DNA from: Bacteroidota bacterium
Lineage (GTDB): Bacteria > Bacteroidota > Bacteroidia > UKL13-3
DNA: 64,000 nucleotides
Assembly: GCA_030680835.1 (NCBI GenBank)
Contig: JAUXUD010000104.1
Coordinates: 25,051 to 89,050, forward strand
Reading direction: 5' to 3'
Part shown: positions 18,528 through 64,000 of the stretch, piece by piece
Numbering within the stretch: the stretch's first letter is position 1
How the letters are laid out: each line of letters opens with the position of its first letter
Program-made: the position numbers and the translations under genes
Notes under the pieces: model-generated
Database searches by the model: none
What the model saw: only the letters and a program-made list of their open reading frames with translations
What the model was told of the DNA's origin: nothing

Positions 18528-18723
18528 TTTTTTGTTATTTAATTGTGAAAGAATTTATTTGGTTCAATTACAGTGTAGCTAAATGAATGGAAGTTCATAA
18601 GATGAATAAAGGAGTGCAGAAGCACTACAAATTCTAACAATAAAAAAGCAACCCATTTTTGAAGGATTGCTCTTTTTTTAATAAAACCAATGATTTGTTT
18701 CCCTATCGTAATGTAATTGAAAA
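18528..18723. repeat. Intergenic cassette, copy 1 of 2 (about 75-80% identical to 19648-19802)
   Basis: Shares TTTAATTGTGAAAGAATTTATTTG, ATAAGATGAATAAAGGAGTGCA and a hairpin plus T-run terminator (18643-18680) with the second copy. Confidence 0.7.
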
Positions 18724-29350: not shown

Positions 29351-29399
29351 GAAGATATTATATCAGATCGAGCTAGGGATTTGTAGCTCTTTACTATCT

Positions 29400-31115: not shown

Positions 31116-31377
31116 TTAATTTCATTACTTCTTCAAATAATAAGTCAAAAGCCTTATTGACTTTATCACCTGAAGATTCAACATATTTATATTCTAAAGA
31201 AGGGCAACGACTAATACCCTCGTTGCAACACGAAAGGATTCGTTGCCCTTCACTAGACTCAATATTTTTTTCTTTGGTATTTTCCTTTTCGTGTTGCTCT
31301 TCCATTGTATCAAATATTCAGATGACTGTTAATACCATAATTGTGGCTTAATACCCTGATTTTTATAAGATGAACAA

Positions 31378-47428: not shown

Positions 47429-47433
47429 AAATT

Positions 47434-47862
47434 ATGGCAAAACCTAAGAGCAAGGCATTGTATGAGTATCTGTTATATGCCGGAGTACTAAACAGTACTC
47501 CGGATGAAATTGCTTTGGCTAAGGTTGCCTACCGGAAAGCATACCTATTAAATTGGAAAGAAAAGAAGGCTCCACTGATTAAAGAAATTAGAATTGTTTG
47601 TTCACTGAAAGAATACAAAGACGTTAAAGTTTTCTCAAATAACCTCGGTAAATCTCCAACAGCATTTACCAAATCCCTACTTCTTTCATTTATCACCCAA
47701 CATTCCATGTTACCGAATCAGCAACAACTGGAATCCATTTATCAAAAGATTGGATTGATTATCAATCAAAGTCTGAAAGATAAATCAAATCTTAACCTGA
47801 TCGAAAAACTGATAACGATTGAGGAGGAGTTGAAAGAATATCTTAAATCCAATTCAAAATGA
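47434..47862 (+). CDS. Small mobilisation accessory protein, hypothetical
   Basis: 142-aa ORF between coupling protein and relaxase. Its end overlaps the relaxase start by 4 nt. Confidence 0.4.
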   Translation: MAKPKSKALYEYLLYAGVLNSTPDEIALAKVAYRKAYLLNWKEKKAPLIKEIRIVCSLKEYKDVKVFSNNLGKSPTAFTKSLLLSFITQHSMLPNQQQLESIYQKIGLIINQSLKDKSNLNLIEKLITIEEELKEYLKSNSK

Positions 47863-48707
47863 TATACAAAGTAATGACACGCAGTACACCAACATATAAA
47901 GGACTTATTGAGTATATTCTAAATGAATCCAAAACTCCTGATAGTCATATTTTCACTCATAACCTGCGTTCAAAGAAGCGGGACGTAAAGAATATAACCA
48001 AAGAGTTCATTGAAAACGAATCATACCGAAAATATTCCCGCAGTGATCAGGTGTTTTTAAACCATGAGATTATAAGCTTTAGTAACATGGATTCTGTAAA
48101 GATTCAACCTGCCATGATCCAAGATATTATGAATCGGTATATTTCATTAAGAGGTGAAAATGGTGTTTACCTGGCCAGTGTCCACCAAGATACCAGCCAA
48201 ATACACGTACACATCATGGTATCTGGTTTACAGTACCGGTCAGGCCGTTCCTTTTATATCCCGAAAGACAAATTATTTAAACTTAAGAAAGATTTACAGG
48301 AATATCAAAAAGAGAAATACCCTGAAATTTCTTATAGCCTGCCGAATCATGGTTCCAAAAGAGAATATGTAACCGACCGGAAATGGTTTGCTAAACACAA
48401 AGAAGATAGAAGTATTGAAAAGGTAATTCTGCAGAAAACCATTAAAGAAGCGTTTGAAATATCCTCAACCCAAAAGGAATTTTTAAACCTGCTGGCTAAA
48501 CAAAACCTCCATTACTATGAAAGGAGTGGAAGTCCTGCCGGTATAATTTCCGGCAATTCCAAATTTCGCTTTTCAAGATTGGGTATATCAAAAGAACTAT
48601 TCAACGACCTACCGTTTGATTTTACCGAAGAAAGCCAGGCTTTAAAAGAAATTGAATTGATCAGGAAATCAAGAAATGTCAATACAAATATTGAAATGGA
48701 ACGATAA
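47859..48707 (+). CDS. Relaxase/mobilisation nuclease (MobB-like)
   Basis: Relaxase motif III HxDxxxxHxH in LASVHQDTSQIHVHIMVSG. N-terminal Tyr-containing region. Confidence 0.75.
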   Translation: MIYKVMTRSTPTYKGLIEYILNESKTPDSHIFTHNLRSKKRDVKNITKEFIENESYRKYSRSDQVFLNHEIISFSNMDSVKIQPAMIQDIMNRYISLRGENGVYLASVHQDTSQIHVHIMVSGLQYRSGRSFYIPKDKLFKLKKDLQEYQKEKYPEISYSLPNHGSKREYVTDRKWFAKHKEDRSIEKVILQKTIKEAFEISSTQKEFLNLLAKQNLHYYERSGSPAGIISGNSKFRFSRLGISKELFNDLPFDFTEESQALKEIELIRKSRNVNTNIEMER

Positions 48708-49299
48708 CAAAAAAATAATTAATCCAAATACAACAATGAATAACAACACAAATGTTGAAACCACCCAGGCTGTGGCTGACAACAAATCAAAAACAACTCC
48801 GATCATTGAACCGGATGTAAAATCAACTCCCTCACCTGATGCACCAGTCGTTAAGAAAAGACCGATTGAGATTGCCAGGGATTTACTTAAAGCACAATCA
48901 GTAGTAGTAAGAAGCCAGGTTGAATCTGGCCAGTTTGAAACTATTAATGATGCAATTATTGAAACCAAATATAAGGATGGAAAAAATCAGGAATTCAAAA
49001 GTTACCGGCAATGGAAAAAAGAAGGGTATCAAGTCAGAAAGGGCGAAAAAGCCTTCCTGTTATGGGGTAAACCTAAAGAAAATACTAATTCCAAAATTGA
49101 ATCGGAACAAAAAAATACCGGCAAGGATAGTCCAGACGAGCATGATCCATTCTTCCCGATTGCATTTGTCTTCTCCAACGCCCAGGTTAACCCTAAGGAA
49201 ATCCAGTTGGAACCAGAAGTAAATGCAACAGTTAATGAGCTTGTCAATATCCGGCACAAGAAACAGGATAGAGATTTACAAAACGAAATGACAAGATAA
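48676..49299 (+). CDS. Protein with ArdC-N-like ssDNA-binding motif
   Basis: SYRQWKKEGYQVRKGEKAFLLWGKP parallels the ...G..VKKGEK... motif of the two ArdC-like genes. Confidence 0.4.
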   Translation: MSIQILKWNDNKKIINPNTTMNNNTNVETTQAVADNKSKTTPIIEPDVKSTPSPDAPVVKKRPIEIARDLLKAQSVVVRSQVESGQFETINDAIIETKYKDGKNQEFKSYRQWKKEGYQVRKGEKAFLLWGKPKENTNSKIESEQKNTGKDSPDEHDPFFPIAFVFSNAQVNPKEIQLEPEVNATVNELVNIRHKKQDRDLQNEMTR

Positions 49300-49311
49300 A
49301 TAATAAAGAAT

Positions 49312-50175
49312 ATGGAAATGCAAAACACTGAGGAGGCAGATAAAATCTTCAATGACATTCAATCTCTACGCGATTCATTGAACCCTAACAATCCAGTTAG
49401 GGTTCAAAAGCAGCCTGGAGAAAATAAAATTCTTGAAAACATATTTGCCATTGAGGCAATTAATAAACGAATGAAGGTACTGGAAGAACAGATCAGGACA
49501 CACCCATTGGATTTTATGAGTATTTTAGTATGGGAAGTTCAACTAGAAAAGCTGGGCAATGATGCGGAACACTTACAGAAGCAAAACCAAAAGCTATCTA
49601 AATCATTTAGTCAAAGCTTTCCAGCATCACCACATACAATACCTAAACAATCCAGAAAAGTGAACCCCTTAACAGGATACGCTCCTATTTCTATGTCATC
49701 ACTTGCTCCAAACATCAAAACTGATTTTGAATTAAAGGAAATCCAAAACAAATTAAATGAAGTCTACGAACGGAAAGATTTTCTTTTCATGGAAATCCAA
49801 AATAGTGCAACCGGAATAGCTGATCCTTTGATTCAAAAAGAACTTGACGAAATTACCCAGCTGGAAGCTTCAATTGTCTCAAAACTGGAAGAAATTCAAC
49901 TTTCAAAAGAAGCTAATGTGTTAATGAATACAAATCAAGTGACTGAACCATATTCTGAAATTAAATTTTCGCAGGTTAAAATACCAGATTCAATCACTGA
50001 ACAAGATAATAATAATACGATTAACTCAAACTCTCCCAACTTTTCTGAAAATGAAATCAAAGGGATAACTTACAATAACGAAGATGAACGCAATAATGAA
50101 TTAAATGAAATTCAAAGTGTTCGTGAGGAAATGGAGGAAATAGATAATCCCGATATAGATGATCCGGATATTTAG
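49312..50175 (+). CDS. Coiled-coil protein with acidic tail, hypothetical
   Basis: 287-aa ORF, heptad-rich, ends in Asp/Glu/Asn-rich repeats. Confidence 0.4.
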   Translation: MEMQNTEEADKIFNDIQSLRDSLNPNNPVRVQKQPGENKILENIFAIEAINKRMKVLEEQIRTHPLDFMSILVWEVQLEKLGNDAEHLQKQNQKLSKSFSQSFPASPHTIPKQSRKVNPLTGYAPISMSSLAPNIKTDFELKEIQNKLNEVYERKDFLFMEIQNSATGIADPLIQKELDEITQLEASIVSKLEEIQLSKEANVLMNTNQVTEPYSEIKFSQVKIPDSITEQDNNNTINSNSPNFSENEIKGITYNNEDERNNELNEIQSVREEMEEIDNPDIDDPDI

Positions 50176-50242
50176 AGACCTTGAAAAATAAAAAACTGCC
50201 AAATCATAATGACTCAGCAGTTCAATAATTTTAGCAACCTTT

Positions 50243-50827
50243 TTAAATTAAGGGCTGCAGTTTTTTGGGAAATTTAACTTTAGGCCACCCTTTTTTTAAG
50301 GTTTCAATCACCAAAAAGTAAGTATCTTCCCAGGTACCTTTGAAATGGTAAAGTTCAGGAAATTCCTCAAGGTCAGTTAAAGTGGTTAAAACAAACCGGG
50401 CTGTTCCATCAGCTTTCAAATAAATACCAATGGATTTGTCTGCACCCAGATGAGCGACTGAAGGAAAGAAGTATGATTCTATTATCACATTCTCTTTAAT
50501 CGCCTCTGGATTGTCATCAGTCATTTCTTCATGAATAACTGCCTGAATATAACCATTTTGATCAGGGAAATTACTGAACAATTTCCTCCATTTTTCTAAA
50601 TGGGGCCAAATTGTTTTAAGGTTCCAAACCTGAATTTCAAACGACATGTCAATTGGAGTCTTTTCAACTAACTTCTTTGATATTAGCTCGTTCGAGGCAG
50701 GTAATGAAGATAAGAATGATTTAATGGTTTCAAGTTGACTCCGGTTAAGGTTTAAACCCATTCCAATCCTGTCCTTGATTTCTGTGAGAGATTCAAGATC
50801 TCTGATTTTTAAAATTGCATCGTTCAT
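50243..50827 (-). CDS. Hypothetical protein
   Basis: 194-aa ORF, no motif. Confidence 0.4.
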   Translation of the reverse strand: MNDAILKIRDLESLTEIKDRIGMGLNLNRSQLETIKSFLSSLPASNELISKKLVEKTPIDMSFEIQVWNLKTIWPHLEKWRKLFSNFPDQNGYIQAVIHEEMTDDNPEAIKENVIIESYFFPSVAHLGADKSIGIYLKADGTARFVLTTLTDLEEFPELYHFKGTWEDTYFLVIETLKKGWPKVKFPKKLQPLI

Positions 50828-51004
50828 GTTTTTGTTTGTTAGTGGTTTCTAAAACGACCATTGCAAAACAGACGCTTAAGAAACCACACAACTTCCACAT
50901 GAATATCTTACTTGTATTATATACTATTATTGGATTTTGTCAATACCTGTTAAGGGTTTCCATAAATTCATTTTTAGCCTTTAAACACAGAACAAATCCA
51001 GTAT

Positions 51005-52126
51005 TTAGGGTATTAGTTGCCTATATTTATTCAGATACTTTTGTGCCACATTATCCCAACTCCATGACGAACCTAACTGATGATTATGTAACATAATTTC
51101 ACTCCAATGTTCCCTTTTATCCATAATTGCTAAAATGGCATCTGAAAAATCAGAAGCCTGGAAGGAATTTGAAAGCACCCCTGATTTATTATTAATTATT
51201 GAGGAAGCAAATTGAAAAGGGGTTGATACAATTGGTCGACCAGAAGCAAGCATTAAAGCTAACACTCCACTTGAACTTTGCTCCTTTCTGGTATACGGTA
51301 CCAGGCATACATCCGCTAATTGAATTAACTTTATTAATTCATCTTGAGTTTGGTATTCGCCAATAACTTTTACATTATCCACTAAACTCAAATCATTAAT
51401 TTGATTCAATATTTCTTTACGATAATCTTGGGCTGTTTCATTTCTTGGATGGTTTGATCCAACTATTAAATACTGAAACTTTGGAATCACTGACTTTATT
51501 TTCGTCAATGCTTGTAATGCAATCTCATAACCTTTTGTATTACGCATATATCCGGTAGAAATAAATACTATTTCTGGGAAGCCAGTGCGCTCGGAATTTT
51601 GAATGGGTTCAGTAAAATCAATTTCTGGAACCCCATGAGGTATTACCTCAATTTTTAAAGCTGTAATTTTATATTTTGAGATTAAATATTCTTTTGATTC
51701 ACTACTAAAGACAAAAATAGCATCACTCCGATTCACCAATTTACTAAAAACAACTTCTCTTTTTTCGGGTAATTCAGGGTTTACTGTATGTAGCGTTGAA
51801 ACAATTGGTTTCGAAATATTATCTAATAAGGTATTTAGATTCTCTCCATCAGGTTTGCCGTATATTTTAAATTCGTGTTGAATATCCACTATATCTACCG
51901 CATTTGAATTTAAATAACCGCATATATTCAAGAAGCTTTCTTTATCAGCTTCCTCAATTACCTTCCTTTTGGGACTTATTTTATCATTCTCAGAAATATT
52001 TAATTCTATTTCTTGGATATCAAAATCAGATGAGTTTTTTAAAAGGCAGTTGATTAGACCATGTGAATAACTGGCAATCCCACATTTTGTTGGGAGATAT
52101 GTGCTTATCAATGCAACTTTATTCAT
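51005..52126 (-). CDS. Glycosyltransferase family 4 (GT-B, group-1 glycosyl transferase)
   Basis: C-terminal EQSSSGVLALMLASGRPIVSTPF (E-x7-E-like donor-binding motif). Confidence 0.75.
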   Translation of the reverse strand: MNKVALISTYLPTKCGIASYSHGLINCLLKNSSDFDIQEIELNISENDKISPKRKVIEEADKESFLNICGYLNSNAVDIVDIQHEFKIYGKPDGENLNTLLDNISKPIVSTLHTVNPELPEKREVVFSKLVNRSDAIFVFSSESKEYLISKYKITALKIEVIPHGVPEIDFTEPIQNSERTGFPEIVFISTGYMRNTKGYEIALQALTKIKSVIPKFQYLIVGSNHPRNETAQDYRKEILNQINDLSLVDNVKVIGEYQTQDELIKLIQLADVCLVPYTRKEQSSSGVLALMLASGRPIVSTPFQFASSIINNKSGVLSNSFQASDFSDAILAIMDKREHWSEIMLHNHQLGSSWSWDNVAQKYLNKYRQLIP

Positions 52127-53006
52127 TGCACGATTCTATCTTAATATCTTTCACTTCTATTTTAAAATCGTTTCCATCAGCCCAGGCAAGCATGTAAACT
52201 TTCTGCCTGCTTTCTCTATTTAACAAGGTTTTAATTACTTCAATATTATTAATGGTGAAATGCAAAAATCCTTCATTATCAAAGGTCATTCCAATATCCA
52301 ACCAATTCTTTGATGCTAAAAGTTTAAGATATTTATCTCTATTTTCTAAAATGCCATTTCGATAAGTGGTTACAAATAATTCTTTGATTAAAAAGTTTTT
52401 TGCAATATGTATAACAAAATTATTATCCAAAGATTGAATGCTTCCGTCACCAAATAAACGGCCATCAGTTCGAAATAATTTAAATCCTAACCGGAAATAT
52501 TCAGAATCAGTTTTTACCTGGCAATTAATTTGCTTCACCAATTTTCCTTCTAAAGGCATTTCCAAAAAATCAGCCCACTGAGGTGTTGTTTTATTGCCCT
52601 TGGTTACCCATTTTTTTATAATTGTTGAAGCACTCGCTTGAACACGGCCCTCATTAATATTTTCTTCCAAATCACCATTTTCCAAAGCTAAAAACTTGGT
52701 GTAGTGGAGATCTTGTTTCTTAACATCTTTAGTGTGAATAATTGAACCGTAAGTAAATGGCAAGTTAAAACTTTTGCCGATTAAAGATAAGAAGTCATTT
52801 GAACCCGCCCGTTTTTGATTAAAAATAGCATGCATGTTTCTCCGATGGCTGATATTGTCGGTGAATATATTAAAATGAGTCGCACTGGTTAGAAAGAAAT
52901 CAAAATTATCAAACCCGGTGATTGTTTTATAATCTACGTAATTTTCTATATACCACTTTACAAATCGCATATACTTTTTTCGCTTTAAACTTTCTGGAAG
53001 TAGCAT
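52119..53006 (-). CDS. Hypothetical protein co-transcribed with the GT4 gene
   Basis: 295-aa ORF overlapping the GT4 start by 8 nt. Confidence 0.45.
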   Translation of the reverse strand: MLLPESLKRKKYMRFVKWYIENYVDYKTITGFDNFDFFLTSATHFNIFTDNISHRRNMHAIFNQKRAGSNDFLSLIGKSFNLPFTYGSIIHTKDVKKQDLHYTKFLALENGDLEENINEGRVQASASTIIKKWVTKGNKTTPQWADFLEMPLEGKLVKQINCQVKTDSEYFRLGFKLFRTDGRLFGDGSIQSLDNNFVIHIAKNFLIKELFVTTYRNGILENRDKYLKLLASKNWLDIGMTFDNEGFLHFTINNIEVIKTLLNRESRQKVYMLAWADGNDFKIEVKDIKIESCNE

Positions 53007-53398
53007 AGATATTGGGATTTATTAGATTTTATAGGTTTAATAGGACTTCATAATATTAGAGAAAATCCTGCTTTTATTTTTGAAACCACAATGAGGAACA
53101 TAAACAGAAAATCTCTAACAATAAATACCGAAAGTATGAAAAATCAAGAACAAATCAAATTTCAATTTTTTAACCCTTTAAACCCAATAACAAATGGCAC
53201 AAACATTTAAAAGGTCTCAGGACCAAAAATCAGACAATGAAAACATAAAATTCACCCGCTTCTTCAAAAGCCTTAATAAAGAAAACCAGGCTTTTTTTAG
53301 CAAAGCTGATCCGGCAGTTAAAAATCTGGTTGGTAAAAAACTGTTAGCAAATTTCAAACACATAAAAAAATAACACACTCTTAAACCAATAAATACAA

Positions 53399-54490
53399 AT
53401 GAAAACACAAGAATTCAAAAGGTTCTCTGACCCAGAGTTGGAGGCCAATTTAAAAACAGCCAAATCAGACGAATTGGAGCTAATCAAATTAGAATCCAGG
53501 AAAATGGCAACCCGACCTCTTCACCTTCCTTTATTATGTGGAGACCACATGTCTTCATATTTTGAAGATTTCCACCTTTTCTATCAATCCCTGATAGAAT
53601 CCATCAACAAAAGGCTTCAAAAAGCTACTACTGTAAATTCTGTCATTCAAAAAAGAGAGGCCACCTCCAAAAAAACACTCGCCTTGTCCAATATCATTAA
53701 TGAGACGGACAAGAAATTACTGGTTGTTAATAAAGAGTTGGAGAGCAAGCCTAAGCCTCCTAACCAGAATAATCATAAATGGGTTATGATTATCATCGGA
53801 TTTTTAAGCCTGTTCGATGGTTTTTTCAGCATCCCAATTTTCGAAAGTTACGGTTATTCATATTTCGAATCATGTATAGCTGGTTTAATGTTCTCTATTA
53901 TCCTGGCCTTTTTCGCTCACATGTTTCCGAAAATAATTGCTTTCGGGAAAAACAGAATACAGAGAATTTTAATCACATTAGTGTTAACGATTTTAAGTAT
54001 TGGATTGTTCATCTGGATGTCCATGAGCCGAGTTGCCTACTTGGAAGGAAATGCCCTTGCTAATGGTGCCACCATCAGTTACAACCCTATTCCGTTCATC
54101 TTAACTTCTATATTGATAATCGGAGTTTCAATCTTCGTATCATTTATCTACTACCCGACAAAAGAAGAATTCAAAGCCATCCGGGAATACAATAAACTGG
54201 AGGACGAGAAAGCGGAGCTTCTCAACACAAAAAAGGCATCAGAAGATGAAATTGAGACCTTGGAAAAAGAACAGGATGAATTTATATCGGCTCATGGATC
54301 ACTAATTGTTTACGCCTCAAACCTTGAGAAGAATGTAATAGCCGATGCAAAATCTGCTTACGCGGTTTATAAAAAAAACAATCTGATGAACCGGTCTGAT
54401 GGTAAGCCGGACTGTTTCGACCAGCCATACCCTTTCGATTTTGTTTTGTATTTCATCACCATTAAATTATTACGCAATGAAAACGACTAA
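53399..54490 (+). CDS. Membrane protein with N-terminal coiled coil, hypothetical
   Basis: Four TM helices in the central region. 363 aa. Confidence 0.45.
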   Translation: MKTQEFKRFSDPELEANLKTAKSDELELIKLESRKMATRPLHLPLLCGDHMSSYFEDFHLFYQSLIESINKRLQKATTVNSVIQKREATSKKTLALSNIINETDKKLLVVNKELESKPKPPNQNNHKWVMIIIGFLSLFDGFFSIPIFESYGYSYFESCIAGLMFSIILAFFAHMFPKIIAFGKNRIQRILITLVLTILSIGLFIWMSMSRVAYLEGNALANGATISYNPIPFILTSILIIGVSIFVSFIYYPTKEEFKAIREYNKLEDEKAELLNTKKASEDEIETLEKEQDEFISAHGSLIVYASNLEKNVIADAKSAYAVYKKNNLMNRSDGKPDCFDQPYPFDFVLYFITIKLLRNEND

Positions 54491-55193
54491 AATATTAACC
54501 ACATTCTTTTTAGTATGCTTCTGCATTGCATGTTCAAAAGAAGAGAATATCCCATTCGATACAGAAATTATCGACTTGGTCGACAGGACGAACATTATGC
54601 CATTACGGCCTGATTCAACTTCATTAATCACTTTAGCCGGGTTGGAGCAATCTAAATGGTCGGGAGTTAAAGTGGAGGTAAGCCTAATATCTGATCGAGA
54701 TGTCAACTTCACCTATACGGCCAAAATTGCTAAAGAGAACGCATGGTATGGAAACAAAACCATGCGTTCCATTCAGATTCAGAAATTCAAACGAGAGCTG
54801 AATAACATAATTGAAAAAATTTATGCCGACACATTTTCAGAATTACCGAGGTCAATTATATACCGCACAGTCGCCATTAAACTGAACCAGTTGGCCAAAA
54901 GTTCAGCAAGACGTAAAATCTGCTGTATTTATTCGGACTTGTTAGAAAAGTCAAACATAGATTTTTACTCGCCGGTATACCGCAAATGGATTCTGGAAGA
55001 TCCTGGCTTAGTCATTACCGAATTTACAAAAGAAATGCCTTTAAGCAACCTGGCCGGTATTGAAGTCCATTTTATGTACTTCCCCAAAGGATATGATGAC
55101 AACAATTTTTATATGGCAATAGTTAAGATTTACCGGAGCATGATTGAAAAAGCTGGCGGACATGTTTTTGTAGAAAGTAATATCAACTACTAA
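54477..55193 (+). CDS. Lipoprotein, hypothetical (start at the internal Met of listed ORF 54399-55193)
   Basis: MKTTKILTTFFLVCFCIACSKEEN lipobox. Overlaps the upstream stop by 14 nt. Confidence 0.5.
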   Translation: MKTTKILTTFFLVCFCIACSKEENIPFDTEIIDLVDRTNIMPLRPDSTSLITLAGLEQSKWSGVKVEVSLISDRDVNFTYTAKIAKENAWYGNKTMRSIQIQKFKRELNNIIEKIYADTFSELPRSIIYRTVAIKLNQLAKSSARRKICCIYSDLLEKSNIDFYSPVYRKWILEDPGLVITEFTKEMPLSNLAGIEVHFMYFPKGYDDNNFYMAIVKIYRSMIEKAGGHVFVESNINY

Positions 55194-55208
55194 ACCCTAT
55201 ATCCTAAT

Positions 55209-55469
55209 ATGCAGATAGACTTTATAACCCGTGCTGATCTACTTGAGTTCCGCAACCAACTCCTGACAGAACTGAAAGCTATTATTATCAGTAATGAAAA
55301 GCCTGAGCCCGGACAGTATCTTAAGAGTGGGCAGGTTCGGAAAATACTTAACATTTCTGCTGGCACCCTGCAAAACCTTCGAATTACCGGCAAACTACAC
55401 CCAACCAAAATAGCCGGTACACTGTATTATTCTTTGGATGAGATTCAATCCCTTTTAAGCGGAAAATAA
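55209..55469 (+). CDS. Excisionase-like HTH_17 (MerR-superfamily) DNA-binding protein
   Basis: LKSGQVRKILNISAGTLQNLRITGKLHPTKIAGTLYYSLDEIQSLL. Confidence 0.6.
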   Translation: MQIDFITRADLLEFRNQLLTELKAIIISNEKPEPGQYLKSGQVRKILNISAGTLQNLRITGKLHPTKIAGTLYYSLDEIQSLLSGK

Positions 55470-55472
55470 CAC

Positions 55473-55772
55473 ATGAACCTGTCTAGCGCAATAGTGTTGT
55501 TTTATCAGTTAGCTGAGAAGGACGCCAATATCAGTCCTTCTCATATAGCTATCTATAACGCCCTGTTGTTTGTTTGGTCAGAACAGAAAATTATGCCATT
55601 GTCGATCACCAGGTCGAGACTGATGCGCCTAGCTAAAATCCGTGGCACGGCTACTTTTTCGAAAGTTATTCGTGATCTTAATAAGATGGGCTATTTGAGT
55701 TATATACCCTCATTTGATCCTGCCGGTAAAACTCAAATATTTTTACAGCTCGGAACCGAACCAATAATTTAA
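55473..55772 (+). CDS. Hypothetical small protein, possible DNA-binding partner of the excisionase-like gene
   Basis: 99-aa ORF 4 nt downstream. Confidence 0.4.
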   Translation: MNLSSAIVLFYQLAEKDANISPSHIAIYNALLFVWSEQKIMPLSITRSRLMRLAKIRGTATFSKVIRDLNKMGYLSYIPSFDPAGKTQIFLQLGTEPII

Positions 55773-55776
55773 TTTT

Positions 55777-55918
55777 ATATATTTGCACAACGAATTAAAG
55801 TAAGCAAAACGAGCCGGTGAGTATTTCGGTGAGTTTTGATTTTTGCTTCATTTAAAGTATTGGGAATAAGATCAGGCCGGCTGTTATTCGAATCTCTCCA
55901 GCTCCAAACTTAATAACC
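55777..55918 (+). repeat. Repeat A (about 140 bp) with tRNA-3'-end-like tail, left flank of the ROCO-TIR gene
   Basis: ATATATTTGC...AATTAAAGTAAGCAAAAC...GGTGAGTATTTCGGTGAGTTTTGATTT...AAAGTATTG...TTATTCGAATCTCTCCAGCTCCA. Paralogous to 60143-60275 and 60354-60447. Confidence 0.7.
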
Positions 55919-55972
55919 TAATATCTGATTAACCCCGAATGTTGAAATGGGTATTTAAATTCCAAATATAGT

Positions 55973-58900
55973 TTATATTGATTCAAACAATTTTTTTTCT
56001 CGGAACTCTTTAATAATATTAGTCCAAAACAAAGCCTTTTCCTCATCATTTAACCCACTAATTTTACCATTATTACGTAAGTCATTGTCAATAGATAAAA
56101 TTTTTCCCCTTTGTGCAGCCTGATATTTTCCTAACTTAGAACTTTCCCAATCACAAGCTTTAATAATAATTGGAATGATAATTTTGTTCTGTTCAATTGC
56201 ATATTCAATTTCTATCTGTTTGATGTAATCTGTGTTAAGAAATTTAACGCTAACTAAACAAATCAAAATATCAGACGAAGTAATTTGCCTTTTAATTTCT
56301 TCATCCCACTCTAGGCCAAATTCAATTTTTCTACAATTAAATGTTATTAGTCCTTCATCCTTCAAAGTTACTAAATGATCCTCAAAGTCCTGCAAATAGT
56401 TCTCATCGAATTTAGAGTATGAAATAAATAGCTTTTTTATTTTTTTTATTTTACTCTGCGTAAAAGAAGAAAAGTCGTATGCTAATATCTCGTTATAATT
56501 CATATTATCAATCCTGCCATTTAAAATTTTATATGCCTTTATTTTATAATTATCATTAATATTAAATAGTTCAGAATATCTTACATAATTCATATCGTCT
56601 ATTGAAATATATGCATCCAATGGTATGTAATCTTTTTCGGTTTGTAATGATTTCCATCCACTATATTGTCCAGAATTAGAATACTCAGTCGATTCTTCAA
56701 AAGACAAAGATTTAAATGCAATAAAATCTTCAAATTGAGGAATTCTAAAATGCTTTAAATCCCAGTAAAGTGCTAAAATACTATAAAACAAATATTCACA
56801 AATTAGCGCATCGGTTGATCTGGAGGAATCCAATCTTTCAAAGATTACATTTATTTTCAATTGCTCAAAATCCAAACTTATTAGAACTTTTGCTTCTTGG
56901 TGAAGCGTAAACAAAAGCTGATTTCGCCAGAACTTCTTAACATCTGGTTGAATGCCATAAAAACAAATCACCTGATTAATAAAACCAAATGGGATAAAAT
57001 CATTGAATTTTATAACAAAATTAGGTTTGTTTAAACCAAATACTGATAAGGTATAATCTGGATCATTATTTAATGCGAGAGGCAAAAAATTAGGAACAAT
57101 ATATTCCTCATTTAATCCATCCCTTGCGGGCTGATTTAAAAAAATTATTTTCTGCTCCCTTAAGAGAGTTAATAATATTTTATCATTAATTAGATCTTCA
57201 AACCTTTCTTTGGGGATAATTCCTTTTCCTAAAGTAATCAAATCTTTAATCAAAATATTTTCATGAATATACCTTACTAAATCAGATGGGCTTAACCAAA
57301 CCACATTTTCTAAGCCTTGAATATGTGGGTAATATAAAACCATACCATGACGATGTAAAATTGTTAAATTCGTAACTAAAGATTGGAGTTTTTTATTAGC
57401 ATCCACTTCAGTCAAATTGTAGTTTGGAAGTATTTCATTTAAGTATACATATTTATTTGTTCCATCATTCTGATTAAAAATGTAATCCAAAAAATCTATG
57501 TACCATTGTGGTTCTAGATTACTTCTATCATTATTAAAATTTGTAATTAATCTTTTTAAAAATGCAATAAAATGTCTTCTCCCAGATTCAAAATACTCAT
57601 CCTCCACAATGTCTGTGAATTTTTTAAACGATAAGTTAAAAGCACCTTTAAATCCAGGATATTTCTCATAATCTAAAATATCACTCGAATTTCCAGCCAT
57701 GTCAGCATATCCTTGAATTATTATATATGGATCAGCACCTAGGGATCTTTCCATATATATTTTTTGACCGAGCCAGTAATAGCGATTAAAATTCATTATT
57801 GGCAAAAAATCAGAGTCTACTGTAATTTCATTTTTATCCTTATCCTTATCAAATAGAATAATTTGTAAAGAATCATTGCTTAAGAATGCTCTATATAGAC
57901 CATGATAAAAATCCTGTCCACCAAAGTCAAAAAAAATTGCATTGGGAAGATTCAAACTTGTATTATCTTCGGAAATATAAAATTTCCTTATTCGTAAAAC
58001 GTGTGTACTTCCCTCTGTATATTGATTAATTATATAATCAAGTAATGATGATTTTCCACAAGCATGGTTACCTAATAAAATTATTTTTACTGGTAATCGG
58101 CATTCTAAATTATCTGCACCTAAATTTCTGCCAATTAATTCCTTTAGATAAGGTAAGTGGTTTTCATCCTTTTCTAAAATTAAATTGAATTTATTTAGAA
58201 ATGGATTATTCGCAATCTTTACTTCAGTACAAGTATTTTGATCAATGATATAGTTTAATTCACTTAAGTTTTCAATTGAATTATAATTTAAATTTATTTT
58301 TTTTAATGATTTTAAATTTCGCAATCCTCCAATAGTACAAATTTGATTATTTGAAAAGTTAATTTCTAATAAGTCACTGAGTTGTGGGAAATTATTTATT
58401 TCTGATAAGTTGTTTTTTTGTAAGCTTAGAGATGTAAGTGAATTTAATTTCTCTAAACCATTAGCTTGTGATATTTCATTATCATTTAAATTTAGCAACC
58501 TTAATCGACTTTGATTATTTAAACCCCGAATAACTTGAATATTATTTTCTCCTAATTTTAATTCCAGCAAGTTTATCAGCGACTCTAACTCTTTTATTTC
58601 ACTAATTTTATTCTTTTCCAAATTCAAAAATTCTAATTTATCCAAATAATTTAGCCCCTTTATTTCGATTATTTGATTTCGATCAAGTTTAAGATCACGC
58701 AATAAAATACAATTTTGTAACCCTTTAATTTCACTAATTTGATTATTGCTTAAATCAAGATAGCACACCTTGCGCAAATTTTCTAAGCCATTTATTTCAG
58801 TAATATTATTATCATTTAAAGATAGTGTCTTTAAATTTTCAAAGGCACTAATATCAATAATTCCATTTAATCTTCTATTACTTAAATCTAAGTTTATTAT

Positions 58901-59938
58901 TTGCCCTTCTTCATCCGTCTCATATTTAAATTCATGAATATTTATTTTTAATTTTTCTTCTAGTTCAAGTATTTGCTTTGGTTTAGAATTTGTTCGATTT
59001 TTTTTAAAAGATTCAATAAGAATATGGGCAGCCACTTCTTCCATTGGATTTTTCCTGTCTAATAATGGGTTTGTCTCCGTAATGTCTATACCAATGAATT
59101 TAGTATTTGTAATAAGATTACCCAATAAATATATTGATTCATTTATAGTAAGGCCCTCTGGCACTGGAGTGCCTGTACCATATGAAATGGTAGGGTCCAT
59201 CGTATCCACATCAAAAGAAACAAATATTAAATCAACATACTTAAGATGTTCTAAAGTCTTTTGAAGAATACTTTCAATACCAAAAGACTTTATGTCTTTT
59301 GGAGTAAAGTATTTAATATTCAATTCATGTAGTAATTTAGTCTCTTCCGAATCCAAGTCTCTAACATCAATTAATACAACATCTTCAGGTAACACCTTCG
59401 GTTTGATTTTCTTCTCACCTAACTCTAATAAATTTAACCATTTCCCCAAAGTATTGTCATCCACAGAATTGATCTTATTATTAGCGTTGTTTTGTCCTAA
59501 AGCTATTGATAGCGCCATTCCGTGCATATTTCCAGATGGAGTAGTAAATGGAGTATGCAAATCAGAATGAGCATCAATCCATACAACTCCCAGTTTCTTA
59601 TTTTCATATCTGTCTTTAATTGCACTTATTACCGCTGCACTAGAACTATGATCGCCTGATAAGACTACTAAATATTTATCATCTTTAAGTAGGTTTGAAA
59701 TCGAATCATATGATCTTTGGAAAACTTGTTCAATTGATTCAATATTATTGCAATAAGAATCGAAATTATTTTCACTTTCCAAATCATTTGTAATAATTTT
59801 GGTTAGCTCTGATGATTTTAAAATATCAGAACCAGACTTACTTATAACTTTATAAATTGCATGAGGGCCAAGTTTAGCCCCTCTTGTTCCAGCCCCGAAA
59901 TCTGAGTCAATTAGTATAATATTTATTTCAGGGTTCAT
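55973..59938 (-). CDS. 1321-aa multidomain protein: arginase/ureohydrolase-fold domain, leucine-rich repeats, Roc-type GTPase, COR-like region, C-terminal TIR domain
   Basis: Arginase motifs LSGDHSSS, IDAHSDLH, SFDVDTMDP (aa 1 to about 330). About 11 LRRs LxxLxLxxNxIxxI (aa about 335-600). G1 LLGNHACGKSS and G3 DFGGQ. C-terminal about 155 aa begin with the TIR motif KKLFISYSKFD and contain ...ILICLVSVKFLNTDYIKQIEIEYAIE. Confidence 0.8.
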   Translation of the reverse strand: MNPEINIILIDSDFGAGTRGAKLGPHAIYKVISKSGSDILKSSELTKIITNDLESENNFDSYCNNIESIEQVFQRSYDSISNLLKDDKYLVVLSGDHSSSAAVISAIKDRYENKKLGVVWIDAHSDLHTPFTTPSGNMHGMALSIALGQNNANNKINSVDDNTLGKWLNLLELGEKKIKPKVLPEDVVLIDVRDLDSEETKLLHELNIKYFTPKDIKSFGIESILQKTLEHLKYVDLIFVSFDVDTMDPTISYGTGTPVPEGLTINESIYLLGNLITNTKFIGIDITETNPLLDRKNPMEEVAAHILIESFKKNRTNSKPKQILELEEKLKINIHEFKYETDEEGQIINLDLSNRRLNGIIDISAFENLKTLSLNDNNITEINGLENLRKVCYLDLSNNQISEIKGLQNCILLRDLKLDRNQIIEIKGLNYLDKLEFLNLEKNKISEIKELESLINLLELKLGENNIQVIRGLNNQSRLRLLNLNDNEISQANGLEKLNSLTSLSLQKNNLSEINNFPQLSDLLEINFSNNQICTIGGLRNLKSLKKINLNYNSIENLSELNYIIDQNTCTEVKIANNPFLNKFNLILEKDENHLPYLKELIGRNLGADNLECRLPVKIILLGNHACGKSSLLDYIINQYTEGSTHVLRIRKFYISEDNTSLNLPNAIFFDFGGQDFYHGLYRAFLSNDSLQIILFDKDKDKNEITVDSDFLPIMNFNRYYWLGQKIYMERSLGADPYIIIQGYADMAGNSSDILDYEKYPGFKGAFNLSFKKFTDIVEDEYFESGRRHFIAFLKRLITNFNNDRSNLEPQWYIDFLDYIFNQNDGTNKYVYLNEILPNYNLTEVDANKKLQSLVTNLTILHRHGMVLYYPHIQGLENVVWLSPSDLVRYIHENILIKDLITLGKGIIPKERFEDLINDKILLTLLREQKIIFLNQPARDGLNEEYIVPNFLPLALNNDPDYTLSVFGLNKPNFVIKFNDFIPFGFINQVICFYGIQPDVKKFWRNQLLFTLHQEAKVLISLDFEQLKINVIFERLDSSRSTDALICEYLFYSILALYWDLKHFRIPQFEDFIAFKSLSFEESTEYSNSGQYSGWKSLQTEKDYIPLDAYISIDDMNYVRYSELFNINDNYKIKAYKILNGRIDNMNYNEILAYDFSSFTQSKIKKIKKLFISYSKFDENYLQDFEDHLVTLKDEGLITFNCRKIEFGLEWDEEIKRQITSSDILICLVSVKFLNTDYIKQIEIEYAIEQNKIIIPIIIKACDWESSKLGKYQAAQRGKILSIDNDLRNNGKISGLNDEEKALFWTNIIKEFREKKLFESI

Positions 59939-60142
59939 TTGAGAATAGGCTAATTTTTAAGCTCAAGGCTAATTCAGCTGATGTAAATTTTCATATTTGA
60001 CGAATTTAATTAAATGGATCAAAATTTCAATGTTTTCCTACTTATAATTTGAATATCAGCCCAAAAGGGTTATAGAACTATATTTTAACTGATGGTAAAT
60101 TATTTTATTTTTAATGTAGTTTAAAATTAAAACCTTAAATTA

Positions 60143-60275
60143 TATATTTGCTTTCAGAATTAAAGTAAGCAAAACAAACTGGTGAGTTTTTAGGTGAGTT
60201 TTGATTTCTGGTTCTCATAAAGTATTGATATTACCTTAGGTACATGTTGGGTTCGGTACTCTCCACCTCCACTGA
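60143..60275 (+). repeat. Repeat B, right flank of the ROCO-TIR gene
   Basis: TATATATTTGC...AATTAAAGTAAGCAAAAC...GGTGAGTTTTTAGGTGAGTTTTGATTT...AAAGTATTG...GGTTCGGTACTCTCCACCTCCA. Confidence 0.7.
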
Positions 60276-60353
60276 GTCAATACTAAATTGAATCAAAGTT
60301 AAAACTGGCCTTACGAGCAGTTTTGTTCAACCTAAATTCTCATCAAAAAAATG

Positions 60354-60447
60354 TGGTGAGTATTTAGGTGAGTTTTGATTTCAGGTTTATATAAAGTATT
60401 GATAATAAGTCGCTCCGGAGGGCAGTTCGAATCCCTGCACCTCCACA
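60354..60447 (+). repeat. Repeat C (5'-truncated copy) with the best tRNA-3'-end-like motif
   Basis: GGTGAGTATTTAGGTGAGTTTTGATTT...AAAGTATTG...GGAGGGCAGTTCGAATCCCTGCACCTCCACA (T-loop-like GTTCGAATC). Confidence 0.7.
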
Positions 60448-60466
60448 AGCAGAAAAAAGAGAAAGG

Positions 60467-60501
60467 GAAAGAGAAAGAGTAAAAAATCCTCTTTCTCTTT
60501 C
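60467..60501 (-). terminator. Terminator of the delta-60-repeat gene
   Basis: Perfect 13 bp inverted repeat GAAAGAGAAAGAG-N9-CTCTTTCTCTTTC followed on the minus strand by a T-rich tract. Confidence 0.55.
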
Positions 60502-60559
60502 AATTTCTGTTTCTAAAAAATCATTCGTTTAAAGCGTATGTCAACCAGTTAAAATTTAT

Positions 60560-61987
60560 TTATTGAACAATAATTTTCTGATTATACACTTTTGCTTCAT
60601 AATAAACTTTTACAAAATAGATTCCTTTTGCCAGGGCAGAAAGGTCTATTTGCATTTGCCGATTATTGTTTGATGCCGTATATACTTTTTCGCCGGACAC
60701 ATTGTAAATTTCTAATTCTCCATTTGATGATTGCATATTGTCAAAGGTCAATTGAAAAATTCCATTTGATGGATTTGGATAAGCACTAAAATTGTGTTTA
60801 TCAAGATTGCTTTCATTTATACCAACTCCGGCACCTCCATTTATGCGGGCAATGTAGTTTCTTGCCGTTCCATTATATGAAGTGAACCAGCCACCGATAA
60901 TAATTTTTCCATCGCTTTGTATAGCGGTTGTATAGACCGAAGTGTTTGCTCCGGTTCCCGGATTAAAAGTTGCATCAAGGCTGCTATTTGCATTTAGTCG
61001 GGCAATACGGTTTCTTGCTGTTCCGTTATAGGAAGTGAACCCACCACCGACAATAATTTTCCCATCACTTTGTAAAACGGTTGTATATACAGTACCGTCT
61101 GTTCCGGTTCCCGGATTAAAAGTAGCGTCAAGACTGCCATCGGCATTAAGGCGGGCAATTCGGTTTCTTGCCGTTCCGTTATAGGAAATGAAAATGCCAC
61201 CGATAATAATTTTCCCATCGCCTTGTATAGCGGTTGTTTTTACAGAAGTGTTTGCTCCGGTTCCCGGGTTAAAAGTTGCGTCAAGGCTACCATCAGCATT
61301 CAGACGCATAATGTAGTTTCTTGCAGTTCCGTTATAAGTAGTGAAGGCACCACCGATAATAATTTTCCCATCACTTTGTATAGCGGTGGTATAAACAGTA
61401 CCGTCTACTCCGGTTCCCGGATTAAAAGTTGCATCAAGGCTGCCATTAGCATTCAGGCGTGCAATTCCCTTTCTTGCAGTTCCATTATAGGCATAAAAAC
61501 TGCCACCGATAATAATTTTCCCATCGCTTTGTATAGCGGTAGTTACGACCTTGTCGCCTGCTCCGGTTCCGGTACCCTGATTAAAAGTTGCGTCAAGGGT
61601 GCCATTAGCATTCAGGCGGGCAATACGGTATTTTGTCGTTCCATTATAGGTATTGAAATCGCCACCGATAACAATTTTTCCATCACTTTGTATAGCAGTT
61701 GTATATATAGAAAGGTTTGCTCCGGTTCCCGGGTTAAAAGTTGTGTCAAGGGAGCCATTAGCATTAATACGAGCAATACGGTTTCTTGTCGTTCCATTAT
61801 AGGAATTGAAACCACCACCGATTATAATTTTCCCATCGCTTTGTATAGCTGTTGTTTCGACCAAATCGTTTGCTCCGTCTCCCGGATTAAAAGTTGCGTC
61901 AAGGCTGCCGCTGCCGGGTTGGGCTTTGACATAAAAACTAAAAGCTGTAAATAACAGCATTGATAAAAATAAGGTGATGTTTTTCAT
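60560..61987 (-). CDS. Delta-60-repeat protein with T9SS C-terminal sorting domain
   Basis: Eight tandem approximately 47-aa repeats (SLDATFNPGTG...TTAIQSDGKIIIGG.F.SYNGTARNRIARLNA.G) and C-terminal FSAYPNPSNGIFQLTFDN...GIYFVKVYYEAKVYNQKIIVQ. Nucleotide-level tandem repeats of about 141 bp. Confidence 0.7.
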   Translation of the reverse strand: MKNITLFLSMLLFTAFSFYVKAQPGSGSLDATFNPGDGANDLVETTAIQSDGKIIIGGGFNSYNGTTRNRIARINANGSLDTTFNPGTGANLSIYTTAIQSDGKIVIGGDFNTYNGTTKYRIARLNANGTLDATFNQGTGTGAGDKVVTTAIQSDGKIIIGGSFYAYNGTARKGIARLNANGSLDATFNPGTGVDGTVYTTAIQSDGKIIIGGAFTTYNGTARNYIMRLNADGSLDATFNPGTGANTSVKTTAIQGDGKIIIGGIFISYNGTARNRIARLNADGSLDATFNPGTGTDGTVYTTVLQSDGKIIVGGGFTSYNGTARNRIARLNANSSLDATFNPGTGANTSVYTTAIQSDGKIIIGGWFTSYNGTARNYIARINGGAGVGINESNLDKHNFSAYPNPSNGIFQLTFDNMQSSNGELEIYNVSGEKVYTASNNNRQMQIDLSALAKGIYFVKVYYEAKVYNQKIIVQ

Positions 61988-62254: not shown

Positions 62255-64000
62255 ATGAAAAACAAATTGTTATTTGTATTCCTGATTTTACTTTTAAGTA
62301 ATAGGAGTATTGCCCAAAACTACCAATGGGCAAATAGTTTTAGTGGCTCCGGGATAGATGCATCGGTTAAAGGGATAAGCATCGCTGTTGATTCATCCGG
62401 TAATGTATTCAGTATGGGTTCATTTAAAGGAAGCATTGATTTCGATCCCGGCGAAGGAAATTCTATTTTGACATCAGGCGTTCCGGAAGATTTTTACATT
62501 TTAAAAACAGATGCCTCAGGAAATTTTATTTGGGTGAAAAGCATTGCTGGAAACAGTTTCTTTACCGCTAATTCAATGGCGTTAGAAAATAATGGCGTTG
62601 TATATATAACCGGTTATTTTTTGGGAAAAATTATTTTTGACAAGGACTCAACAAATGCGCTGCTTAATACAAAAGATGATATTGAATTATTCATTTTAAA
62701 GATATATTCAAACGGAAAATTTGCATGGTTCAAAAAGTTGGATGACACTGCTGCTGTTTATGCAAATTCAATAAGCACCGACCTCTTTGGAAATATATTA
62801 ACCACAGGTGGTTTTATAGGTAGTACTGATTTTGATCCGGGAGCGGGCACATTTATGATGACACCAACAGGCGATGATGATATTTTTATTTCAAAGCTCG
62901 ATAGCAATGGCAATTTTATCTGGACCAAAAGCATTGGAAGTAAATATGATGAACAGGGGAAAATGATTCAGACAGACATTTATGGGAATATTTATATCAG
63001 TGGGATTTTTCGCGACACAATAGACTTTAACCCTGGTTTGGGAGTATATAATCTAATGGCAACAGACTATGATTCTTATATTGTTAAATTAGACGCAGCA
63101 GGGAATTTTGTCTGGGCAAGAAGTTTTGATGTCCCTACAATATTTTCTTTAAATATCGATAAGCTTGGAAATGTTTTAAGCACCGGATTATTTAAAGGAA
63201 CCGTTGACTTTGATCCGGGAAGTGGGATATTTAATCTGATTGCAATTAGCTCAAATGTTTTCATCGCAAAACTTGATAGTTCCGGAAATTTTGTTTGGGC
63301 TAAATCAATAGGCGGAAATATTTATACGGATGCAGGAACAGCTATTACTGCTGATGATTCAGGAAATGTTATCACTACCGGTTATTTTCAAGACAATTAT
63401 TATGGACCTATAGATTTCGACCCGGGAGTGGGAACATTTTTTCTAAAAGGTTCGGTCAATGAAGATATTTTTATCTTAAAACTCAATCCATCAGGCAATT
63501 TTATCTGGGCAAAAGTTATAGCAGGAAATAAAACCGACATGCCTGCTTCAATTGCACATGACCGCTCAGGAAATATTTATATTACAGGCTATTTTTCGGG
63601 CGCAGTTGATTTTGATCCGGGTACTGGTACAAAAACCCTAATAAGTGGATTGAACACAAATGCATTTACATTAAAATTGGGAAGCTGCCAATTAACAATT
63701 AATTGTCAACCTAAAAATGCCCATATTATTTTAGGAGAAGACGCTCGCTTTTATATAAATACTTCAAATACTTCAGCAACCTATCGATGGCAACTCAACA
63801 TAGGGACAGGTTTTAATGATATTGCTGAACTTGCTCCTTATTCAGGAGTGCATAACGACACTTTAACAATAAGTCACATTGGATTTTATGCAAATAATGA
63901 ATACAGATGTATCATTAGCGACGGAAACTGTTCAGTTACCAGCAATACTGCAAAGTTAAATATAGATTGTGATTTTTCAATAAGCCGGCAACCGGAAGAT
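62255..64000 (+). CDS. 3'-partial SBBP/beta-propeller-repeat secreted protein (not in the ORF track because no stop lies within the window)
   Basis: ATG at 62255 and signal peptide MKNKLLFVFLILLLSNRSIAQ. Repeated ...SGN(F/V)IW(A/V)KSIGG...DFDPG... blades. Frame open to the window end. Confidence 0.6.
   Translation, partial: MKNKLLFVFLILLLSNRSIAQNYQWANSFSGSGIDASVKGISIAVDSSGNVFSMGSFKGSIDFDPGEGNSILTSGVPEDFYILKTDASGNFIWVKSIAGNSFFTANSMALENNGVVYITGYFLGKIIFDKDSTNALLNTKDDIELFILKIYSNGKFAWFKKLDDTAAVYANSISTDLFGNILTTGGFIGSTDFDPGAGTFMMTPTGDDDIFISKLDSNGNFIWTKSIGSKYDEQGKMIQTDIYGNIYISGIFRDTIDFNPGLGVYNLMATDYDSYIVKLDAAGNFVWARSFDVPTIFSLNIDKLGNVLSTGLFKGTVDFDPGSGIFNLIAISSNVFIAKLDSSGNFVWAKSIGGNIYTDAGTAITADDSGNVITTGYFQDNYYGPIDFDPGVGTFFLKGSVNEDIFILKLNPSGNFIWAKVIAGNKTDMPASIAHDRSGNIYITGYFSGAVDFDPGTGTKTLISGLNTNAFTLKLGSCQLTINCQPKNAHIILGEDARFYINTSNTSATYRWQLNIGTGFNDIAELAPYSGVHNDTLTISHIGFYANNEYRCIISDGNCSVTSNTAKLNIDCDFSISRQPED

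Follow-up and report, generated by a model that had tools for sequence, protein, structure and literature searches.

In Roco proteins the regulatory side, including the leucine-rich repeats (LRRs), lies N-terminal and the output domain lies C-terminal to COR (PMC11052575), and in CtRoco of Chlorobaculum tepidum (6hlu, 3dpu, 8r4b) the switch alternates between a compact nucleotide-free or GDP-bound dimer and an open GTP-bound monomer (PMC5714945, PMC11052575). LRR-ROCO proteins have been described in prokaryotes (PMC11378527, PMC7159879), as have ROCO-TIR combinations such as the TPR-ROCO-TIR arrangement in Chondrus, and no biological role is known for the Roco proteins of bacteria (PMC11378527). 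Here we analyze a 64,000-nucleotide stretch of DNA from a Bacteroidota bacterium of the UKL13-3 lineage (contig JAUXUD010000104.1, positions 25,051 to 89,050; hereafter the window), in which a minus-strand open reading frame (ORF) of 1321 aa at 55973..59938 encodes, in this order, an arginase, LRRs, a Roc GTPase, a COR domain and a TIR domain. The same protein is deposited as GenBank MDP1728504.1 ('MAG: arginase family protein [Bacteroidota bacterium]', where MAG denotes a metagenome-assembled genome). We hold, at about even confidence, that it is a GTP-switched single-chain TIR enzyme of an LRR-Roc-COR-TIR family with a captured, intact arginase in its N-terminal slot. ROCO-TIR combinations and the deposited sequence itself were already known; what is new, and so far unique, is the join between an arginase and a ROCO-TIR protein.

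The initial annotation, made from the DNA letters and their translations, had described a single minus-strand ORF with five domains, and this description is borne out by profile and fold searches and by a second assembly. MDP1728504.1 is an exact public copy of the fusion protein, forms a singleton cluster and lies on a contig of 185 kb, while Logan contig SRR13727518_35362 (4704 nt), which comes from a separate assembly, reproduces window 55751..60454 with 0 mismatches. Because the two assemblies agree base for base, the uninterrupted frame is not the product of one assembler. Every motif that the annotation had quoted (GDHS, DAHSD, SFDVDTMDP, GNHACGKSS, DFGGQ, LFISYSKFD and ILICLVSVKFLNTDYIKQIEIEYAIE) can be located in the translation; the profile searches did not fail, no identical architecture was found in a named defence system and the ORF is not interrupted. 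Five of the window's 14 homopolymers of at least 8 bases fall inside this gene, mostly in Lys-rich linkers (58998-59005 and four more, at codons 545, 668, 1164 and 1314), and two of them sit exactly at module boundaries, arginase/LRR and COR/TIR. These runs may simply reflect Lys-rich linkers within AT-rich DNA.

The C-terminal thousand residues constitute the sensor and output chassis. The LRR array (residues 346-600; 58139..58903, minus strand) comprises ~10 repeats of 22 residues and a C-cap, with Pfam LRR_8/LRR_4 matches running from 349 to about 565, so that the 'about 11' repeats counted previously were a fair estimate of what reads directly as 10 full 22-residue repeats plus a cap. The array also matches internalins, and the LRR-Roc part matches the CtRoco structure 6hlu at E 1e-52. 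The Roc GTPase follows at residues 613-775 (57614..58102, minus strand; Pfam Roc 618-703, E 5e-8) with its G1 motif GNHACGKSS at 622-630, switch I T645 and G3 motif DFGGQ at 671-675; residues G623, G628, K629, T645 and D671-Q675 are invariant in relatives. The COR domain (A+B, residues 776-1160; 56459..57613, minus strand) is less apparent from profiles, as Pfam COR-A scores 26.4 bits over 829-952, under the cut-off of 35.3; two homologues, P0004 and P0007, do pass the COR-A cut-off, and a third, P0005, has a COR-B match. An AlphaFold2 (AF2) model of residues 600-1321 (predicted local distance difference test, pLDDT, 77.5; predicted TM-score 0.73) finds as its top PDB matches the CtRoco RocCOR tandem 3dpu, 6hlu, M. 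barkeri Roco2, LRRK1 and LRRK2, at E 4e-15 to 1e-9 and spanning 480-650 columns. These fold matches settle the COR assignment despite the sub-threshold Pfam score.

The same evidence bears on the type of switch. The protein had been described as a ROCO-type, STAND-like sensor, and the first half of that description stands. The second does not, because Roc with COR forms a Ras-like GTPase switch, of another kind than the NB-ARC/NACHT ATPases. A STAND NTPase core of the NB-ARC, NACHT or SWACOS AAA+ type was ruled out by the NTPase matches, which are only to Roc, Ras, MMR_HSR1 and small_GTP, and a STAND fold was ruled out for the switch by the structural matches to RocCOR and small GTPases. 'STAND-like' therefore holds as an analogy of logic, not of fold.

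The chain ends in a TIR domain (residues 1165-1321; 55976..56446, minus strand) with a Pfam TIR_2 match at 1171-1274 (E 1.6e-11; 45.2 bits against a cut-off of 28) and a PADLOC ThsB1 match at 1169-1281 (E 1.7e-20). The motif LFISYSKFD lies at 1170-1178 and ILICLVSVKFLNTDYIKQIEIEYAIE at 1224-1249, and F1171, Y1174, S1175, D1178, D1223, S1230, Y1238, E1243 and P1256 are invariant. The candidate catalytic glutamate, E1243 (codon 56210-56212), is invariant in 10/10 relatives compared and in at least 90% of 23 relatives. A search of the PDB with the single TIR sequence gave no match and a family profile was needed; that profile matches Cat1, bacterial and plant TIRs (SNC1, RPS4) and AbTIR, and aligns E1243 with the catalytic Glu of Cat1. 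Together with the PADLOC match to ThsB1, this profile alignment supports a ThsB-like TIR with a conserved Glu.

At the other end of the protein, the arginase module occupies residues 1-312 (59003..59938, minus strand; Pfam Arginase 5-309, E 2.5e-54) and can be aligned from end to end with two arginases of Bacillus (6dkt and 1cev) as well as with 44 Bacteroidota arginases that stand alone. Its signatures, GDHS at 95-98, DAHSD at 122-126 and SFDVDTMDP at 241-249, had been read as intact, and the Pfam match, the full-length alignment and the kept ligands agree. All six binuclear-Mn ligands are retained (H97, D122, H124, D126, D243 and D245, the counterparts of rat H101, D124, H126, D128, D232 and D234) and are invariant across an alignment of 45 Bacteroidota arginases. 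The catalytic His is H139 in SGNMHGM (equivalent to rat His141), the guanidinium-binding Glu is E288 in ITETNP (equivalent to rat Glu277), and the substrate contacts S135, N137, D196 and E199 are likewise kept (rat S137, N139, D183 and E186). The position of rat N130 is held by His, as in at least 90% of the 45 Bacteroidota sequences, whereas Bacillus RocF has Asn there. With 220.6 bits, the match to the NCBIfam equivalog rocF_arginase (TIGR01229) stays just short of the 227.6 cut-off.

Standalone arginases are single-domain proteins of 300-315 aa, whereas the fusion arginase runs on into a 1000-aa sensor. The proteins closest to it consist, without exception, of this one domain (310-315 aa), and even the best match shares no more than 53% identity. 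At 65 highly conserved columns the fused arginase has 7 private substitutions, compared with at most 5 in other sequences; all 7 are conservative and leave the metal ligands untouched. In a neighbour-joining tree the module lies 0.282 from the root, where the mean is 0.286±0.028. An average root-to-tip distance, together with changes that are conservative and spare the ligands, thus rules out that the module evolves under relaxed constraint or at an accelerated rate. Because the ligands, the catalytic His and Glu and most substrate contacts are kept and the rate is normal, the fused arginase is most probably, judged from its sequence, an active Mn2+ L-arginine hydrolase.

The join between the two parts is abrupt. 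An A8 homopolymer (58998..59005, minus strand) marks it at codons 311-314 (F-K-K-N), where the DNA reads TTT AAA AAA AAT, and the junction with the LRR N-cap (residues 313-345; 58904..59002, minus strand) carries the family motif KPxxILELEExLxI at 318-334. Standalone arginases stop opposite residue ~312 of the fusion protein, and short-form relatives of the chassis start with 'M(K/D)..KPxxILELEKxYNI', which matches query residues 318-334, 'SKPKQILELEEKLKINI' (aligned by eye; MAFFT misplaced this segment). As the arginase ends and the short-form starts meet, two complete proteins are joined head to tail without a linker. No in-frame ATG, GTG or TTG occurs in the 33 codons following the junction and no Met before the Roc domain, so the ROCO half could not be translated alone. 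A ±1 slip at the A8 run would lead to a stop after 6 or 14 codons, yielding an arginase-only product and no ROCO-TIR protein.

We then consider the family to which the chassis belongs. An exhaustive HMMER search with the Roc-COR-TIR region returned 274 cluster representatives at E<=1e-30 and 2692 at E<=1e-10; nearly all of the best 150 of the 274 span Roc to the TIR end, and the family is mostly from Bacteroidota and Nostoc. The whole protein retrieved LRR-Roc-COR-TIR proteins of 1050-1500 aa, with 24-43% identity over ~73% of the query, from Tenacibaculum, Emticicia, other Bacteroidota and many Nostoc. Scanning GTDB genomes and JGI metagenomes as well brought in one relative from a Chitinophagaceae MAG (44%) and one metagenomic protein of 1061 aa (49%). 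Homology with these proteins (Tenacibaculum P0004, 'TIR domain-containing protein'; Emticicia P0007; Nostoc 'COR domain-containing protein') extends over ~318-1321 at 24-49% identity and includes shared motifs and the LRR N-cap. An arginase is absent from all of them, their N-terminus being either the cap itself or a different module.

The position of the Roc P-loop among 157 chassis representatives separates these arrangements, lying at 250-500 in short forms and at ~600-650 in at least 23 long forms, and the query's P-loop is placed as in the long forms. Long-form members (P0216, P0220, P0223, P0226, P0294 and about 20 more, all outside the window) have an extra first 340-370 residues without a Pfam domain, followed by the same KP..IL.LE cap. 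An AF2 model of this long-form N-terminus (pLDDT 80.3) shows a β-sandwich and then an α/β domain; Foldseek matches the β-sandwich to legume lectins and the α/β domain to the macro/ADP-ribose domain of VEEV (TMt 0.73), TTHA0132 (0.72), TARG1 and DarG. By Pfam alone the Macro domain is not callable at E 0.17, and weak sequence matches agree with the fold assignments. A profile search for further long-form N-terminal modules gave one partial match only. The long-form subfamily thus has the chassis and insertion point of the query with a ConA-like domain plus Macro in place of the arginase, and the slot is empty in short forms, lectin-like plus Macro in long forms and occupied by an arginase in the query only. 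The family has repeatedly added modules at exactly the same N-terminal point. The proposal of two effector domains is not borne out by this arrangement, in which the arginase stands on the N-terminal input side, in a slot where relatives have either nothing or a lectin-like domain plus Macro. That Macro and TIR share a chain suggests that the product of the TIR may be sensed or hydrolysed by the very protein that makes it. Long-form member P0294 has a further ~300 residues without an assigned domain. A 295-aa ORF within the window (52119-53006, minus strand) ends in 'YMLAWADGNDFKIEV', resembling 'FAWADGIEFEL' of the long-form lectin-like domain; homology through this 'AWADGxxF' motif was unsupported (BLASTP E 0.018 over 24 aa, hhalign probability 2.3%).

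The arginase fusion itself was sought, as PF00491 plus Roc/TIR, in 5.8 billion protein clusters, 1.84 billion representatives, GTDB species genomes and JGI metagenomes. Full-protein and arginase-only searches, the GTDB and JGI scans and a motif scan of the 157 representatives found no arginase joined to ROCO/TIR elsewhere, and the suspicion that the fusion is unique is thereby confirmed for the collections searched. A conserved pair of adjacent arginase and ROCO-TIR genes was also ruled out, there being no adjacent arginase gene at the loci of seven relatives (at one of which, L005, the neighbours are not annotated). The relatives' loci are single-gene, without a conserved partner, and some lie in a conflict or mobile setting, namely a TIR/patatin island (L012) and two paralogues beside a primase/SSB region (L010). 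In L012 (15789-23162), the genome of P0013, a CAP12-PCTIR TIR gene, patatin-TIR, TPR-S, patatin and another TIR gene stand within 10 kb as a conflict island. In L010 (1-1974 and 10001-14506), from Emticicia fontis, the two ROCO-TIR paralogues are 8 kb apart, by a mobile region with primase, single-stranded DNA-binding protein (SSB) and AAA_25 genes. The homologue in the Chitinophagaceae MAG (L005) is split into two consecutive ORFs of 732 and 605 aa (5527-7725 and 7791-9608), a possible frameshift or pseudogene or a possible sequencing error.

Set against described systems, the protein resembles CtRoco in its LRR-Roc-COR order and in giving it the best Roc-COR fold match, but CtRoco has neither a TIR output nor an N-terminal enzyme; in LRRK2 a kinase stands at the position of the query's TIR. 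The arginase is like Bacillus RocF (6dkt, 1cev) and standalone Bacteroidota arginases in its full-length alignment, Mn ligands, catalytic His and Glu277-equivalent. Thoeris ThsB, Cat1, AbTIR, SpbK and the TIR-bearing Avs/bNACHT proteins share the ThsB-like TIR or the logic of a repeat sensor, an NTPase switch and a TIR effector. In Avs and the plant TIR-type receptors (TNLs), however, the domain order is the reverse of the query's, and their switch is a STAND ATPase whereas the query's is a Ras-like GTPase. Membership in Thoeris was rejected, as PADLOC and Pfam found no adjacent ThsA (SIR2/SLOG, transmembrane or Macro) in 48676-55772 and 60560-61987, the ORFs further right to 64000 not having been scanned.

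The gene stands alone and is boxed by three copies of a ~130-nt direct repeat, one downstream and two upstream, just as had been noticed. Copy A lies downstream (55775..55906, plus strand) and consists of the core and an end resembling a tRNA or transfer-messenger RNA (tmRNA) 3' end (TTCGAATCTCTCCAGCTCCA); copy B lies upstream (60140..60272, plus strand) and is 83% identical to copy A over 88 nt; copy C (60314..60446, plus strand) has only the core in common, carries its own inverted repeat and pairs with its own upstream sequence in a strong hairpin (fold z-score -5.3). The core reads GGTGAGTWTTTMGGTGAGTTTTGATTT…TAAAGTATTG; by chance, 0 matches to the repeat would be expected. Copies A and B begin with a Bacteroidetes -7-like TAtATTTG, and each copy ends differently in a tRNA/tmRNA-3'-end-like TTCGRWWC…CA(G/C)CTCCA. 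Rfam returned only two sub-threshold chance matches over 55000-61000 (E 0.14-0.23), ARAGORN found no tRNA or tmRNA genes in the window, and the repeats showed no viral-contig match and no shared RNA fold; these searches rule out a known RNA, a tRNA or a phage attachment (att) site. The two ends of the Logan contig fall immediately beyond the outer copies, A and C, which suggests further repeat copies or heterogeneity, and the repeats may be att-type sites, perhaps of a GC-richer mobilizable element that ends at copy A. Apart from the ROCO gene, the interval between copies A and B contains two short antisense ORFs but no integrase and no other credible gene. A tRNA/tmRNA-targeted integrative island was accordingly rejected: direct repeats are present, without a target RNA gene or an enclosed integrase.

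Composition does not mark the gene as foreign. GC content at third codon positions (GC3) is 0.18-0.25 across its five modules, compared with 0.20-0.26 in the window's host-like genes, while the neighbouring mobile-element genes, at GC3 0.35-0.43, are the compositional outliers (block ~45.9-55.8 kb). Low GC as a sign of foreign origin is ruled out by the host-like GC3 of all five modules. The earlier suggestion of a defence cargo dropped into a hotspot is thus half sustained: the repeats and the nearby mobile and Gabija genes fit it, and the host-like GC3, the lack of an integrase between the repeats and the lack of a tRNA or tmRNA gene in the window tell against it.

A complete Gabija system lies at 21981-27384 (plus strand), with GajA at 21981-24233 (E 6e-286) and GajB at 24230-26137 (E 5e-257) recognized by PADLOC and a third, overlapping ORF at 26134-27384 (plus strand) giving a weak PDC-M11A match. 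A mosaic of mobile elements at 15564-19647, 28640-32781, 45953-49299 and 55209-55772 contains an IS3-family transposase, two ArdC-N+zincin genes, a third ArdC-N gene, a zeta toxin, a large serine recombinase, two genes of the type IV coupling protein (T4CP) kind and a MobA/VirD2 relaxase, and an HTH_17 excisionase-like gene ends 200 nt from the ROCO gene. Adjoining the mobilizable element is a low-GC ORF of 1136 aa (41452-44862, minus strand) without a Pfam or PADLOC match. On the other side of the ROCO gene, a DUF5122 β-propeller sorted by the type IX secretion system (60560-61987, minus strand) contains six copies of 153-nt tandem units that are 61-82% identical, and further repeats spaced ~390 nt apart occupy an unannotated region at 62397-63635.

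From its position and its homology with CtRoco and LRRK2, we infer by analogy that the LRR side would be regulatory, Roc-COR the switch and the domain after COR, the TIR, the output. In the working that we propose, the LRR solenoid, with whatever module lies N-terminal to it, would form the input side; binding of a ligand or protein there would release the Roc-COR GTPase switch, with dimer/monomer cycling as in the homologous CtRoco, and the resulting change in conformation or assembly would license the C-terminal TIR to cleave nicotinamide adenine dinucleotide (NAD+) through Glu1243. The outcome would be either growth arrest, as an abortive-infection-type defence, or a nucleotide signal. Our committed guess is that the arginase would be an accessory catalytic module and the protein bifunctional; that its activity is coupled to the sensor, as a second metabolic output or as bait, and that it merely rides along seem to us about equally probable.

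Several observations weigh against this proposal of a GTP-switched TIR enzyme with a captured arginase. With the fusion seen only once, in a single metagenome sample, selection for the fused state cannot be shown, and an arginase, which needs no activation step, fits poorly as a regulated effector. The G4 motif of Roc is degenerate, reading GYAD (with the Asp kept) as against THAD in close and NKxD in distant relatives, which leaves the nucleotide specificity of Roc uncertain. In the TIR domain the Glu lies at Y+5, one off the canonical W-x-x-x-E (W+4), and HMMER aligned different PDB TIRs differently at the Glu register. PADLOC recognizes the TIR domain only, several relatives' genes stand among ordinary housekeeping genes, and our literature search found no ROCO-based anti-phage system, no defence role of arginase and no arginase-ROCO or arginase-TIR fusion.

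Of the other explanations, that of a passenger is possible, if doubtful: a neighbouring catabolic arginase gene and a ROCO-TIR gene would have been joined by a small deletion or point change, and the fusion would be neutral and recent, its arginase serving ordinary metabolism. The end-to-end join without a linker is what such an event would leave, and the singleton architecture in every collection searched, the host-like composition and an arginase clade that is otherwise entirely single-domain, at 310-315 aa, and in which the fused member evolves at a normal rate all point the same way. No relative, however, has an arginase gene beside its ROCO-TIR gene, so the ancestral adjacency is unsupported; a recurrent subfamily carries other modules at the same junction, making N-terminal accretion a family habit; and an arginase 53% identical to its nearest known relative excludes recent capture from a sampled lineage. 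An artefact, whether a chimeric assembly or an indel error at A8 falsely joining two genes, is extremely improbable. A homopolymer does sit exactly at the junction and the data come from a single sample, but two assemblies are identical base for base, and with both halves in the same frame and the ROCO half lacking its own start, an indel would destroy the gene rather than create it.

We judge it quite improbable that the arginase is an input-side module, a bait (integrated decoy) or metabolite sensor that signals to Roc-COR-TIR, in spite of its location N-terminal to the LRR, on the regulatory side of Roco proteins (PMC11052575; LRRK1/2 and CtRoco fold matches). The sister subfamily does hold ligand-binding folds in the slot, a lectin-like sandwich plus Macro. 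A sensor would, however, not require fully kept catalytic machinery, we know of no phage factor that targets arginase, and the architecture is again a singleton. It is very unlikely that the whole chassis is non-immune, that is, a signalling GTPase in which the TIR acts as a protein-protein adaptor or NAD-linked regulator and the arginase provides a link to nitrogen metabolism. Such a role would agree with the unknown biological role of bacterial Roco proteins (PMC11378527) and with the several relatives found among housekeeping or two-component genes, but the TIR is ThsB-like and has retained a Glu of the catalytic type. The family also shows what conflict systems typically show: a patchy distribution, paralogues, LRRs that vary in number, and neighbourhoods of a mobile or conflict kind.

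Returning to the LRR-Roc-COR-TIR enzyme with its captured arginase, the fusion is striking but a singleton, and the more durable lead is the family with its swappable slot. It is rather unlikely, in our estimate, that the arginase does a job of its own within an immune sensor, be it as a regulated second effector or as an integrated decoy, and that LRR-Roc-COR-TIR proteins are a hitherto unrecognized single-gene defence family with a swappable slot. Were this true with the arginase as second effector, the invader would be starved of arginine alongside NAD+ depletion, giving the first amino-acid-depleting bacterial defence effector and a bacterial parallel to arginase-based nutritional immunity; as a decoy, the module would bait an invader factor aimed at arginine metabolism, in the manner of plant NLR-ID receptors (NLRs with an integrated domain). 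A single-gene defence family would, if true, also provide the first biological function for bacterial Roco proteins, whose structures are used to model LRRK2, the protein of Parkinson's disease, and a Roco protein with a TIR output may offer NAD+ cleavage as an easy biochemical read-out of the Roc-COR switch. The TIR output points to a role in conflict or defence for a family of hundreds of cluster representatives that is absent from PADLOC, the library of defence systems consulted here. If the arginase fusion is functional, amino-acid metabolism would join the things that bacterial immune proteins manipulate or guard; if the arginase is a passenger, the N-terminal slot would still mark where new modules get tried out.

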